Assembly (NCBI GenBank): GCA_028688515.1
Contig: JAQTXZ010000002.1
Coordinates: forward strand, 25,791 to 89,790
DNA: 64,000 nucleotides
Reading direction: 5' to 3'
DNA from: Patescibacteria group bacterium
Lineage (GTDB): Bacteria; Patescibacteriota; Patescibacteriia; 2-12-FULL-60-25
The notes beneath the pieces are model-generated. The model searched no databases and was not told the origin of the DNA. It was given only the letters and a program-made list of their open reading frames with translations. Positions 28,555 through 33,440 of the stretch are shown piece by piece (within the stretch, counting starts at the first letter, position 1; the number at the start of each line of letters is the position of its first letter). The translations under genes were made by a program, and so were the position numbers.

Positions 28555-28629
28555 GCGGGTATCGTATAGTGGCTATTATGCGACCTTGCCAAGGTCGAGA
28601 GGCGGGTTCAATTCCCGCTACCCGCTCCA
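28555..28629 (+). tRNA. tRNA-Gly(GCC), CCA encoded
   Basis: GCGGGTA/TACCCGC acceptor stem, anticodon arm CGACC-TTGCCAA-GGTCG, T-arm GGCGGGTTCAATTCCCGCT. Confidence 0.9.
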
Positions 28630-28743
28630 ATCCAGAGGCCGGCCGAATGGCCGGCTTTTGCGTTGGTTGAGAGAGGATTCCTCGGGAGCCTTGGTGACCG
28701 CTTTCTTCCTGTTACCCGCCTTGGTGGCCATTAGGTGACCATT

Positions 28744-31700
28744 TCAGTTTCGAATCTGGCCAGATCGCGGCTCGTTCGCTCGCGTCGAGTCCGTGTGCGC
28801 CGGACCCTCGGATGCACTCTTCGCGACCCGCTGCTGGGCACGAGGGCGTATGACCCCATCGCAGTCGTCGTCAACGACGCCGTCACATGTCTCGGCGGCG
28901 CCGGGGTGGACGCTGGTATTCCCGTCGTGGCAGTCGGCGCTGTTCGCTACGTAACCCGCTGGCGCGGAGCACGCGGCGTAGGGCTTCGTTGGATCGCCGA
29001 ACCCGTCGCTGTCTGCGTCTCGGTAGAAGGTCAGGGTCGCGCCGTCGTCGATCATGCCGTTGCAGTTGTTGTCCAAGCCGTCGCACTGCTCCGACGCCGG
29101 GAACACAAGCTGCGTGCAGACGATCGCCCCGATCGAGCATGATGACGTCCCTTTCGCACACTCCCCGAGTTGCTGGGTAACTGTGCAGGGGCTGCCGCCG
29201 CCGGGGTCGCCTTCGTCAGCGTTTCCGTCGCAGTCGTCATCGAGACCGTTGCACGTCTCCTGTCCTGGTGGCTTCGGGGTACACGGTTGGACTACGCCGC
29301 CTACGCAGTCGTCTTGGGTCACCGCGCACTGACCGATGCCGCACGCCGTAGATCCGAGCCCTTCGTCGATCTGCCCGTCGCAGTCGTTGTCCTTGCCGTC
29401 GCAGACTTCTGGGTCGGTAGGGACACAGACTAACAGGCAGCCGTCCAATCCCGAGCATTCTGAGTCCGCGCAATCCACTACGCCGTCGCAGTCATCGTCG
29501 ACGTCATTGCCGCACCGGCCAGCTACCCCTTCCGTCGTCGGGTAGCCCGTGAACGGGAGCTGGATTCCGCCACGGAAGCACGGACCCCAGGCTCCAGCCT
29601 GGCAAAGCTGACTCCCACCGGCACAGGCATCAAAGCCACAGCTCTGCGAGAAGGCGTCCACCTGCCCGTCACAGTCATCATCAACGCTGTTGCACGTCTC
29701 GGCACCGCAGCACTTCCCGCCGCTGCACCACTGCCCCTGCAGGCACTTGTGGAGACAGGCGCCGCAGTTCGCCCAGTCCGCCGACAGGTTGAACACCTCG
29801 TCAACTGCGCCGTCGCAGTCGTCGTCGAGACCGTTGCAAAGCTCGGTTCCTCCAGGGTGGACGCCCCAGATGGAGTCATCGCAGTCGGTCCCGCCGCAAG
29901 CCGCGTCTTCGATCCCGTCGCCATCCGCGTCGGGACATACAGGACCCGCGGGTCCGCATTTGCCGTTTGACACGCAGGTCGAGTCCTCAGCCGCGCATGT
30001 ACTGCCAGGGCAGCATGGCTCGCCGTTCTTCCCGCAGTACGTGCAACCCGTGCCCGGCACGCACACCCGGCCAGGATCGCACGTGTGCGGAGAGACCTTC
30101 ACGTTGCAGTAGCCAGAGAGGGTGCAGGAATACTCCTCGGTCTCGGAGTTGCACTGCCAGGTGTTCGAGGGGGAGCACTCGTCCGTGCAGGCAGTACCGC
30201 CCGAGCCTCCGGCACCACCCATTCCGCCGGAGCCTCCTCCGGCACCTCCACTACCCGAACTCTGGCACGACGATCCGTTGCACGACAAGCCTTGTTTGCA
30301 AGCGCTGGGGGAGTTCGAGCCGCAACACGGTCCATTCTCATCCCCGCAGGCAGTATTGCACGTCCCGTTTGGGGCTGTACACAGCAGCCACGAACCGCAG
30401 TTCGCTAGAGTCGTAGCGTCGCTAAGGCAGCCAGTGGGAGGGCAGAGGTAGATTTTGCCTTCGTCGGCACCGCAGGTCGTTATCCCTGGACTACACCCGT
30501 CGGAGCAAGAACCACCTGCTCCACCGCCCCCGCCGCCACTCCCACCCATTCCCTGACTGATGCACTGGCCGTCCACGCATTTCGTGTCGTCAACGCAAAG
30601 CTGGTCGGGTGACATCGTATAACACGGGTTGCTCCCGAATCCAGTCCCGCAGAAGCTCCTACTGTCCTGACTCGTGCATTCAGCGTGTCCCGGGGTGCAG
30701 TTATCCATACACGCGTCGGGACCGGGTTCGTTTTCTACAACGACCAAGTCGTGGCAATCCGGGTTCAGGGTGGGAATGTATCCTGGTAAATGCAGGTGAA
30801 CGCACGGCTCGCTCGGCGTCGGGCATTTGTCCCCCTTGCCCCACCACATATGACCATTCAAGAAGTTCTGTCGCGTCACGCTCTCGCTGTTGCCCAGGTT
30901 GACCTGACGCTCGTCTTCCACCGGCGGACCAAGCAGCCTGGGGCCCGCGGAGTCAGCTAGGCACTTGTAGGTACCCCAGAAGGCGCCCTTTACTACGTAT
31001 GCCTTCCGGTCGTTTGCCAGGATGGCCCAGGTGTGGGTTTGATCGACTGGACAGTGCAAAGATGGGGCGAAATCTTGAAGAAAGACACCGTGCCAGCTAT
31101 GCACGCCAACGCCGCCTCCGTTGTCAAAGGGATAACCCGGTGGAACGGTCTTGCCATAGTCCGTAGCAAAGAAACGCTCCCGAATCGCTCTGTCAGACTC
31201 GCCACAATCCGAAATGCACCTTCCGATGCACCAGGATCTTCGCAAGCGGCCCACGGAACTGTCGTCGCAGTCGAATGCAGAATCGCAAGCAGTGCTAAAC
31301 GGTTGTATGAGAGACGTATACGGGGACCTGAACTGGTAGACAGCATCCACGCGGAGTCGGATCTCGAAGTGAAGATGTCGGGTCGTATAAGGCTCTCCCG
31401 TGTTTGCGTCCAGGTTTGATACTTTAGCGATTCTTTGTCCCCGAGCGATGTGTGAATGTAATTTGAGACCCAACGCGGGATCGGTAGCAACATGCCCATA
31501 ATGATATTCTGCTGAACCATCGTCGGCTCTTAGAATGATCCATCCGTCGTGAAAAGTAGTAAGCGACCCATCCACCACCGCTACGACCCAATGGAGCTTG
31601 TCGCGGCAAGTCGGAGGTCGGACATCTTGGCCTTGATGCCCCGTTCCAGCCGGACAGGCTGGGTTCTTCCAAGAGCGAGGCTCGCAGAAGTTGTCCCACC

Positions 31701-31983
31701 ACGGGAAGTCGTAGTTTCCCGGATCGCATTGGAGCCCGTTCCCTCCGTCGGGAAAGAAGTAGTGATCTCCGCCAGGATTATAGTTCTGCGAGTTTGCAAA
31801 CCCGCCCCCTTCAACAGGGAACAGGATGCCAGGCGCCCAAACGATGTCATCCGAGACGCCCGCAGTGCCGGACAGGTTCTCGAGATCCCCTGGGTCGTGA
31901 TACTCGACTGGCGAAGCGTGCGCCGCGAGCGATGAGGCGCAAATGGAAGTCACCGTCGCGAGGAGTATGCGTGGTCGTATCAT
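28744..31983 (-). CDS. large secreted M23 metallopeptidase-domain protein with Cys-rich CxxxDDDCDGxxDE repeats
   Basis: Signal peptide MIRPRILLATVTSICASSLAAHA. M23 motifs HQGQD and RHLHFEI. More than 10 repeats of the type CNGLDDDCDGAVDE/CDGKDNDCDGQIDEG. Gly-rich linkers. Confidence 0.8.
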   Translation of the reverse strand: MIRPRILLATVTSICASSLAAHASPVEYHDPGDLENLSGTAGVSDDIVWAPGILFPVEGGGFANSQNYNPGGDHYFFPDGGNGLQCDPGNYDFPWWDNFCEPRSWKNPACPAGTGHQGQDVRPPTCRDKLHWVVAVVDGSLTTFHDGWIILRADDGSAEYHYGHVATDPALGLKLHSHIARGQRIAKVSNLDANTGEPYTTRHLHFEIRLRVDAVYQFRSPYTSLIQPFSTACDSAFDCDDSSVGRLRRSWCIGRCISDCGESDRAIRERFFATDYGKTVPPGYPFDNGGGVGVHSWHGVFLQDFAPSLHCPVDQTHTWAILANDRKAYVVKGAFWGTYKCLADSAGPRLLGPPVEDERQVNLGNSESVTRQNFLNGHMWWGKGDKCPTPSEPCVHLHLPGYIPTLNPDCHDLVVVENEPGPDACMDNCTPGHAECTSQDSRSFCGTGFGSNPCYTMSPDQLCVDDTKCVDGQCISQGMGGSGGGGGGAGGSCSDGCSPGITTCGADEGKIYLCPPTGCLSDATTLANCGSWLLCTAPNGTCNTACGDENGPCCGSNSPSACKQGLSCNGSSCQSSGSGGAGGGSGGMGGAGGSGGTACTDECSPSNTWQCNSETEEYSCTLSGYCNVKVSPHTCDPGRVCVPGTGCTYCGKNGEPCCPGSTCAAEDSTCVSNGKCGPAGPVCPDADGDGIEDAACGGTDCDDSIWGVHPGGTELCNGLDDDCDGAVDEVFNLSADWANCGACLHKCLQGQWCSGGKCCGAETCNSVDDDCDGQVDAFSQSCGFDACAGGSQLCQAGAWGPCFRGGIQLPFTGYPTTEGVAGRCGNDVDDDCDGVVDCADSECSGLDGCLLVCVPTDPEVCDGKDNDCDGQIDEGLGSTACGIGQCAVTQDDCVGGVVQPCTPKPPGQETCNGLDDDCDGNADEGDPGGGSPCTVTQQLGECAKGTSSCSIGAIVCTQLVFPASEQCDGLDNNCNGMIDDGATLTFYRDADSDGFGDPTKPYAACSAPAGYVANSADCHDGNTSVHPGAAETCDGVVDDDCDGVIRPRAQQRVAKSASEGPAHTDSTRANEPRSGQIRN

Positions 31984-32516
31984 CACGGTGCTCCTTTGCC
32001 TCCCACGAATACCGAAATCGACGCCAAGGACCGGGCATGCTGAATCGAAGCCGTACATTGTTGTGCACAACTTTCGATTATCTCGTACGCGGCACCGAAC
32101 TGCGTCCAACTGAACGTGAATCTACCATCGTCACTCTCGTACTCAGACGTTGATTCCTCGACGACAGGAGTACCTGGTACGTGGAATCCGACCTTCGTCG
32201 CGCTGATGTAAACGGAGCGGCCTTGGTAGTCCGCCGCGAAAGCGTACCCGCCCGCGTCCGAAATTAGCTTTCCGTTCCTGAGTAGCTCGACTTGTCTTGG
32301 GAGCAGTACCGGTACCGGCGACATGGCAACTGCCGCTTGACTCTCCGGAGGCAGCAGCGCGAAGGCGAGCTCATCCGGCTTGTCAGCCGGCCAAGTTATG
32401 TCAGCCTGAAATCGCTCAGGCGTCACCGGGCGTTGAAGGACGTCACTTGGTCGATTGTCGCTCCTCCCGCAGCCAGTCAAGACCAGTGCAATAAGCCCAG
32501 CTAGCACGAGCGTCAT
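31983..32516 (-). CDS. lipoprotein, unknown function (alternative start 32564)
   Basis: Lipobox LIALVLTGC. The TGA overlaps the ATG of the M23 gene by 1 nt (TGATG). Confidence 0.6.
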   Translation of the reverse strand: MTLVLAGLIALVLTGCGRSDNRPSDVLQRPVTPERFQADITWPADKPDELAFALLPPESQAAVAMSPVPVLLPRQVELLRNGKLISDAGGYAFAADYQGRSVYISATKVGFHVPGTPVVEESTSEYESDDGRFTFSWTQFGAAYEIIESCAQQCTASIQHARSLASISVFVGGKGAP

Positions 32517-32658
32517 CGGTTCGAAGGGTGCAACGCGCCTGGGGAGCGAATGGAGTGGCGGCATAGTACCCAATATGGAATACCAATCGCGACCAATAGT
32601 CAACAGGCAGGGATTGCCGGCTCGTAGGCCACGTGTTACGTCCAGACTGCAAGATCGC

Positions 32659-32845
32659 TCAGTCAGGGATAGTTGGTGCGCCGGCCTCGAGGTCAGCTTC
32701 GCGGATGCGCACCAGGCGCCCGATTGCGGAAGTGTGCCATGTCGCCTCGGGCGAGCAGGGCGTACACGCCGGAGGTCGCCATGTTGAGGCGACGGGCGAC
32801 ATCCGAGGCTGTGAGCAAGCGCGTGGATTGAATAACAGTTTGCAT
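32659..32845 (-). pseudogene. frameshifted excisionase/MerR-type HTH gene
   Basis: MQTVIQSTRLLTASDVARRLNMATSGVYALLARGDMAHFR continues in another frame as IGRLVRIREADLEAGAPTIPD. The span is 187 nt, i.e. one extra base, near 32721-32727. Confidence 0.6.
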
Positions 32846-33252
32846 ATAGTATTGTAGAGATAGGAATCAGGCCCCTCCTTCCTCCTCGCCACGCGCGGGT
32901 GGCGCACGACAGCGGGTGGCGCACGACTTGACGGCGATCGCCGCGTGCGGTGAAATATCGGCATCGGATGCATAATGCCGCGTACATTAACACCAATTGC
33001 GCCCCTGAAAAGGGACGCTGGCGGTCGCCAATATTTCAAGATGCCGCCCTCGCGAGGGGGTGCTCTCATCTCGAAACCATGGTGACCGCTTTGGTGACAG
33101 GAATGTCGCGCACGAGACGTTTTGTAAACCGACTGGCCAGACGGTGACCCTGGCTGAAAGCCGCTCTGCTGCGTGCAATCAGTGCGTCTCCGTCGTGCTC
33201 GATCGGGCACGACGACGCGCTTCGGCAAGTTCAATTCCCGCTACCCGCTCCA

Positions 33253-33286
33253 CGTAAAAACAGCTCCACAAGAGCTGTTTTTACGT
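33253..33286 (+). terminator. intrinsic terminator, probably the original tRNA-Gly terminator
   Basis: CGTAAAAACAGCTC-cacaa-GAGCTGTTTTTACG immediately after attR. Confidence 0.6.
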
Positions 33287-33440
33287 GTCCCGTGGCGCAT
33301 AGTATAAATTAGTTCTGCGCTTTACGGGACTAAATATTTCGCTGTTCACGTGGCGCCGCCAAAAAACTCCCACCGGGGAGTTTTTTGAATTTTCAATAAT
33401 CAACATTCAATATTCAATAGCCGATCAATCTCGTTAGCTA

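Follow-up and report, generated by a model that had tools for sequence, protein, structure and literature searches.

Classical genomic islands that target tRNA genes are inserted at the 3′ end of the tRNA, which is regenerated upon integration, and are bounded on the far side by a repeat of the tRNA end. They have a deviant GC content, contain their integrase gene and, at one end, an excisionase-type helix-turn-helix (HTH) gene, and the corresponding sites are empty in related genomes. Elements that keep both attachment sites (attL and attR) but have lost the recombination genes are termed cis-mobilizable elements (CIMEs), as defined by Guedon et al. (2017; PMC5704250) and exemplified by the ICESt1/ICESt3-related islands of Streptococcus thermophilus; their formation by tandem accretion with subsequent deletion has been documented (PMC5704250). 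Tandem genomic islands have also been described at the ssrA gene of Dehalococcoides (PMC3146451). Genomic islands are common in Patescibacteria; a term search of the paper on these returned no mention of integrases or tRNAs (PMC12455944). Here we describe a GC-rich island of 4,599 bp, very probably integrated by site-specific recombination at a tRNA-Gly gene, within a 64,000-nucleotide stretch of DNA (referred to below as the window) of a Patescibacteria group bacterium (assembly GCA_028688515.1, contig JAQTXZ010000002.1, positions 25,791 to 89,790). The window is part of a 1.29-Mb metagenome-assembled genome (MAG) of four contigs, with 48% GC and 99% completeness. In NCBI, proteins with 90% or higher identity to its EF-P and RRM proteins carry the name 'Patescibacteria group bacterium'.

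The window island shares with the classical tRNA-targeting islands the insertion at the tRNA 3′ end, the regenerated tRNA, the repeated tRNA end and the deviant GC content. It likewise has an HTH gene of the excisionase type at one end, and the site is unoccupied in related genomes. It differs from them in that no integrase gene lies within it, and in the supply of its own tRNA terminator, which is a family-wide feature here. In common with CIMEs, it has kept attL and attR and lost the integration genes, and the same genome contains a related integrase-bearing element with the same att site and a tandem accretion array. In contrast to CIMEs, however, it is not adjacent to a functional element but sits at a paralogous tRNA-Gly gene, and its host is a Patescibacterium; moreover, no conjugation or mobilization genes were found in the examined members of the family, so that parentage by an integrative and conjugative (ICE) or integrative and mobilizable (IME) element is not established. 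The Dehalococcoides case is comparable in that islands gained by horizontal transfer are integrated at one small-RNA gene of a bacterium with a small genome, whereas the target there is tmRNA instead of tRNA-Gly and the cargo differs.

The island is bounded by two exact copies of the 24-mer GTTCAATTCCCGCTACCCGCTCCA (positions 28606–28629 and 33229–33252), with none expected according to shuffled sequences; no further matches were found window-wide when up to 3 mismatches were allowed. The first copy, on the plus strand, is the attL core and constitutes the last 24 nt (T-arm and 3′ strand of the acceptor stem) of the integration target, tRNA-Gly(GCC) (28555–28629, plus strand). This tRNA was found by ARAGORN to be intact, and its sequence is the same (100% identity) in two related species (G018 and G007). 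ARAGORN detected no tRNA at the second copy, the attR core (plus strand). The GC content of the DNA between the repeats (28630–33228) is 0.59–0.66, compared to 0.42–0.50 on both sides, and every island gene is located on the minus strand. The first-pass annotation of the window, prepared from the sequence alone, had proposed an insertion into the tRNA-Gly 3′ end with an exact 24-bp att duplication, and an abrupt switch to GC-rich genes between the repeats; both proposals are borne out by these results.

The same annotation had suggested a search for an unoccupied tRNA-Gly site in related genomes, and such sites were indeed found. At least 21 other species genomes of the genus are present in the collection. 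In the closest relative compared (G018; 83–88% DNA identity in the left flank), contig C3 has the same tRNA-Leu–efp–tRNA-Gly(GCC) gene order, and sequence homologous to the window from position 33360 onward lies immediately behind the identical tRNA. The tRNA-Gly(GCC) site is likewise empty in G010 and G013, where the right flank lies directly behind the tRNA, and the core is present as a single copy in G007, in G009 and at a second G018 locus. An occupied site was identified in G004, in which a 1.4-kb GC-rich remnant lies between two exact copies of the 24-mer at tRNA-Gly(GCC) (locus L052, contig 8, 4348–5815). This remnant contains homologues of the left and right arms of the window island and a piece of the xis (excisionase) gene, with no recognizable cargo. 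In G018, the neighborhood composed of efp, tRNA-Gly(GCC), a carbonic-anhydrase-like gene and an RRM gene occurs twice (L049 on contig 3 and L150 on contig 2), with the tRNA on opposite strands; the neighborhood may be truly duplicated, or the bin (3% contamination) may combine two strains.

Comparative analysis of the same genome revealed four further members of the family. On contig 4, the tRNA-Gly(TCC) gene is followed by an 18-kb block of 60% GC, composed of four tandem islands (designated A–D) that are separated by copies of the att core with 0–3 mismatches. This array (G000 contig 4, 792677–810518; locus L017, 677–18518), located inside a 971-kb contig, is a textbook tandem accretion. The last 24 nt of tRNA-Gly(TCC) are identical to those of tRNA-Gly(GCC); overall, the two tRNAs are 96% identical over 79 bp and their downstream modules about 81% identical. 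Island D contains an intact xis gene overlapping a gene for a 369-aa integrase (IntD, with an N-terminal SAM-like and a catalytic domain), followed by cargo. Several R, K, H and Y positions of IntD are invariant among its relatives, and we take these to be the catalytic residues. In island B, xis is intact and the integrase is reduced to three short fragments, which document the loss of an integrase by deletion within the family; a Shedu gene (SduA) and a PDC-M48B-like one are also present there. Island C has a truncated xis, lacks an integrase, and over 361 bp its right arm does not differ from that of D (100% identity). In island A, a 540-aa open reading frame (ORF) has only the catalytic half of an integrase and is accompanied by a second, C-terminal fragment, so that the integrase is probably rearranged; this island also contains an FGE-sulfatase-like gene. 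To judge from these gene structures, D is the sole copy with an evidently intact recombination module.

A feature common to all five islands is the presence of a transcription terminator behind the tRNA. In the window, a GC-rich hairpin followed by a U-run begins four bases past attL (28633–28660, plus strand; folding energy −22.4 kcal/mol, z −4.0) and has the properties of an intrinsic terminator supplied by the element. A hairpin with a T-run opens each of the five islands at the same position, with stems of different sequence, i.e. the structure is kept and not the sequence, which indicates that the rebuilt tRNA receives its terminator from the element. Directly past attR, the native downstream sequence of tRNA-Gly (33253–33387, plus strand) comprises an A/T-rich terminator hairpin (33253–33285; −19.7 kcal/mol, z −8.2), a module of approximately 110 bp, and a second terminator (33360–33387; −17.2 kcal/mol). 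Since the module is also found behind tRNA-Gly(CCC) (contig 3) and behind the contig 4 array, the sequence past attR can be regarded as native to tRNA-Gly genes. The first-pass annotation had assigned a GC-rich terminator to the island and an AT-rich, original one to the sequence behind the second repeat, and it was correct on both counts. The module itself, composed of the A/T-rich terminator hairpin and further short inverted repeats, is present behind all three tRNA-Gly genes of the genome (window 33253–33365; G000 C3:20786–20895 and C4:810521–810631; 81–82% identity) and at two G012 sites; it has no extra copy of the tRNA end.

The kinship of the window island with the contig 4 islands is also evident in its ends. 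Contig 4 contains three matches to the right 530 bp of the island (about 82% identity) and two to the left 115 bp (75–78%). The left arm (28661–28763, plus strand), classified as type 1, is 75–78% identical to the left ends of islands A and C. The right arm is a family-conserved, non-coding region of 383 bp (32846–33228), with an identity of 81% to its counterpart in D, 77% in B and 81% in C; compared with D, the coding part of xis is 68% identical. Directly oriented GGTGRCC motifs are clustered in both arms (left: 28693, 28723 and 28734; right: 33081 and 33143, with the near-match GGTGACA at 33093), only one copy being found elsewhere inside the island, and pairs of GGTGAC are also present in a metagenomic relative (L057, described below). 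These clusters are candidate arm-type integrase binding sites. Both cores and both arms with their GGTGRCC clusters are intact in the window island. Type 1 left arms were identified in the window island, in A, in C and in G004, and this type adjoins an integrase gene in island A and on metagenomic contig L056. Type 2 left arms, present in B, D and one L056 element, go with elements of the xis-int-cargo organization. The window island thus combines a type 1 left arm with a xis-type right arm. A 17-bp block (CGGGTGGCGCACGAC plus 2 nt) is tandemly duplicated upstream of the xis pseudogene (32893–32927), and single in islands B, C and D.

Adjacent to the right arm lies a pseudogene of the Xis/AlpA type (Pfam HTH_17; 32659–32845, minus strand), recognized by alignment and translation against the intact 77-aa copies of islands B and D. 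Its reading frame (32845 to 32693, minus strand) contains one extra base near 32722 relative to these copies; the frame is broken past approximately residue 40, and the expected continuation is found in the neighboring frame. Neither a PF00589 domain nor a tblastn remnant of IntD or IntA (the integrase of island A) was detected in 28630–33228, and no relaxase, coupling-protein domain or phage genes were found in the window island.

These results indicate that the DNA region 28630–33228 is very probably a genuine genomic island, integrated site-specifically by a tyrosine integrase of a family that recombines the 24-bp core with the tRNA-Gly 3′ end. The most plausible course of events is that (i) an IntD-type tyrosine recombinase joined the 24-bp core of the element with the 3′ end of tRNA-Gly, (ii) the incoming element thereby provided a replacement tRNA 3′ end together with its own terminator, (iii) the native tRNA end and terminator were displaced 4.6 kb downstream, and (iv) the window copy would later have lost its whole integrase gene and acquired the frameshift in xis. 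Decay from an integrase-bearing element is supported by the integrase fragments in sister island B.

Several observations weigh against this interpretation. The window copy retains no integrase remnant, and an integrase-bearing ancestor is therefore suggested by its relatives instead of by the island itself. Its left arm is of the type that adjoins a different, rearranged integrase in island A and on contig L056; since the left arm of D is of the other type, IntD may not recognize both arms of the window island. Furthermore, Logan contigs of the same organism (run SRR22315507) match each flank at 100% identity but span neither junction: on the left they break off at 28580, within the tRNA, and on the right they begin at 33258, just past attR, close to or within the repeated tRNA-Gly sequences in both cases.

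With the integrase lost and xis frameshifted, the window island is no longer autonomous and corresponds to a CIME, given that attL and attR are kept and the recombination genes are gone. The first-pass annotation had noted the missing integrase gene, the frameshifted candidate for a recombination directionality factor and the intact cargo (described below), and these three statements agree with our data. It had concluded that the island appears immobilized, which holds for autonomous movement but goes too far in general, because the same genome contains the intact xis-int pair on contig 4, in an element whose right arm is 81% identical. The presence of this pair, which belongs to the same family, makes movement with a trans-supplied integrase conceivable, and the location of the window island away from the functional element means that mobilization would require action in trans and not cis accretion. 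Excision or mobilization in trans by IntD, together with XisD or XisB, may thus occur, although we give this prospect somewhat less than even weight. A broader proposal is that the five islands constitute one system, in which the autonomous element D would serve integrase-less cargo islands (the window island, B and C) that move between the paralogous tRNA-Gly genes and between cells; the tRNA-Gly ends would form a cassette-like platform for imported GC-rich genes, and the integrase lineage and the M23 peptidase domain of the cargo might be derived from Myxococcota. We consider this proposal speculative and rather unlikely in its entirety.

The mixed arms of the window island raise the question of how it was assembled. 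A type 1 left arm joined to a xis-type right arm may signify the deletion product of a former tandem, or else modularity of the arms. In the first case, a deletion inside a tandem of an element with a type 1 left arm and a xis-int element with the present right arm would have removed the internal att site and both integrases, which would refine, not replace, the scenario of integration and decay. The existence of two left-arm types, the occurrence of the same combination in the window island and in island C (both without an integrase), and the documented formation of CIMEs by tandem accretion and deletion (PMC5704250) speak for such a mosaic. However, the loss of both integrases with retention of cargo and xis would require no fewer than two deletions, the arms could be modular within a single element type, and a deletion scar was not identified; we therefore regard it as a tentative and somewhat doubtful refinement. 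A route without any integrase is homologous recombination or gene conversion between the paralogous tRNA-Gly loci, by which the island would have arrived at tRNA-Gly(GCC). It would be favored by the close similarity of the two tRNAs and of their downstream modules, and by the identity of the C and D right arms over 361 bp, which shows recent exchange of a non-integrase type inside the array. Against it, the cargo of the window island is found on none of the array islands, its arms are only 75–81% identical to those of the array, which makes it no recent copy, and its edges coincide exactly with the 24-bp core, as predicted for site-specific recombination. Arrival by gene conversion is accordingly improbable.

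A more trivial explanation would be an assembly chimera, in which the assembly of the metagenome joined a GC-rich fragment of another organism to the conserved 3′ end of tRNA-Gly. The genome is indeed a MAG, the repeat is short and conserved, and the independent Logan contigs span neither junction. Such an error would nevertheless have to enter and exit at the same 24-mer, and it would not account for a second repeat that lies outside any tRNA, as an attR should. Because diverged copies of both arms are present at a second tRNA-Gly gene inside the 971-kb contig, and in G004 at the orthologous tRNA of another species, a chimera is very unlikely. The matches of the integrase and Xis to phage integrase and excisionase PHROGs, and the weak match of the M23 domain to endolysin PHROGs, might point to a remnant of a prophage or phage satellite instead of a non-viral island. 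These integrase, excisionase and weak endolysin-domain matches were all that the PHROGs scan returned, genes for capsid, tail, terminase, replication or packaging were detected neither in the window island nor in the four contig 4 islands, and the family cargo elsewhere serves defence (Shedu, and a set of Qat-like genes). A viral origin was therefore rejected as highly improbable.

The cargo of the window island consists of two genes. The larger one (28744–31983, minus strand), preceded by AAGGAG 7 nt ahead of its ATG, encodes a secreted protein of 1079 aa, in which a signal peptide and an M23 metallopeptidase domain are followed by Gly-rich linkers and five Cys-rich repeats of the MopE type (Pfam: PF11617, 1.3e-31; PF01551, 3.7e-05). 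The Pfam score of the M23 domain (24.3) is lower than the cut-off of 28.7; the HxxxD and HxH motifs (H116–D120 and H203/H205) are invariant in an alignment with 11 homologues. A comparison of the N-terminal M23 half with PDB sequences gave no match. The smaller gene (31983–32564, minus strand; start at 32564 or 32516) encodes a lipoprotein with the lipobox LTGC, and its stop codon overlaps the start of the M23 gene (ATGA). A search for word-level homologues of the lipoprotein returned only the protein itself. An unrelated contig of 64% GC encodes the homologue nearest to the M23 half (43% identity over 98% of this half); directly upstream of it lies a gene whose product is homologous to the lipoprotein (27% identity, E 5e-16), and the lipoprotein and M23 genes thus form a conserved module. 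The two genes are translationally coupled, and their products are most likely a secreted M23 peptidoglycan peptidase, active on the cell wall, and a lipoprotein acting as its partner or immunity protein. PADLOC analysis of the two proteins revealed no defence-system match, and the cargo was absent from the 30 relatives searched, save for short matches to the Cys-repeat motif.

Comparing the cargo proteins with databases had also been suggested in the first-pass annotation, as a means of identifying the donor lineage. The best named homologue is an M23 peptidase of Sorangium (44%). The nearest relatives of IntD are 83% (L057), 69% and 65% (L056) identical to it, and L057 and L056 both have the att-xis-int-cargo layout of the family with the same core. 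L057 is a JGI contig with an exact 24-bp core beside xis-int and a flank of 50% GC that is unrelated to the window genome. L056 (ENA contig Polyangiaceae_MWCO01_2_NODE_1436), from a bin labeled Polyangiaceae, contains tandem xis-int-defence islands with the same core between them; its 57% GC and its Patescibacteria-type tRNA-Gly core make the Polyangiaceae label doubtful. The cargo of L056 includes a 2018-aa STAND-like NTPase and a set composed of KAP NTPase, QatB and TatD. No match to IntD exceeding 39% identity was found in 200 genomes of the class of the host. Two metagenome scans, one with the attR junction and the other with a conserved xis-leader block, gave no match.

In a tree of 64 integrases, IntD falls into a well-supported clade of 12 members, whose hosts are mostly unassigned; the sister clade comprises 39 integrases, 28 of them from Myxococcota, including the cultured Sorangium, Chondromyces and Polyangium. 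The exact att core is present in 16 of 300 other Patescibacteria, while in the five myxobacterial genomes it was absent with up to 2 mismatches allowed, a 17-mer with 1 mismatch giving matches at the control level only. Myxococcota were consequently downgraded as a direct donor. On our reading of these comparisons, the element family would circulate among organisms with Patescibacteria-type tRNA-Gly genes, and its deeper ancestry may be myxobacterial.

Some further integrase loci were noted in the course of this survey. The integrase on a contig of a Nanoarchaeia-labeled MAG is identical to that of a Candidatus Uhrbacteria MAG (L078 and L079) and is located beside tRNA-Gly(TCC), a case that is likely due to mis-binning. 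Two integrases, L101 (Patescibacteria-labeled MAG) and L097 (unclassified MAG), lie in loci of 62–63% GC and are nested in the Myxococcota-rich clade. At L059 (GCA_027425155.1, a 599-kb contig), an island of 61–69% GC adjoins tRNA-Ala(GGC) in a genome of approximately 52% GC and contains a relaxase (Replic_Relax), a TraG-like coupling-protein domain, RadC and a xis-int pair (49% identity to IntD); by its predicted gene content, this island is a mobilizable relative of the IntD lineage. In the genome of the window, three more tyrosine-integrase genes or fragments (G000 C4:693727–694973, C3:99686–100445 and C4:302297–302758) adjoin tRNA genes, namely tRNA-Met, tRNA-Arg(TCT) and tRNA-Ser(GGA), and one of them lies in a GC-rich block. 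Approximately 8% of the genome is contained in blocks of at least 57% GC.

As an element type, the window island is already known: it is an ordinary decayed mobile element of a well-documented kind. Its interest lies in the host, since Patescibacteria have tiny genomes and their route of gene acquisition is little understood. The window island provides a cleanly bounded example, with both att sites, both arms, its own terminator and empty sites in sister species, and the five islands together contain approximately 22 kb of foreign genes, including those for a secreted cell-wall peptidase and a Shedu-type defence protein. Integrative elements that target tRNA genes, their decay to non-autonomous islands and their tandem accretion all operate in the phylum Patescibacteria, and one intact xis-int element together with several integrase-less relatives in a single genome constitutes a simple test system for mobilization in trans. 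If the proposal of a five-island system proves true, the tRNA-Gly ends would serve as a platform for the import of GC-rich genes into ultra-small bacteria.

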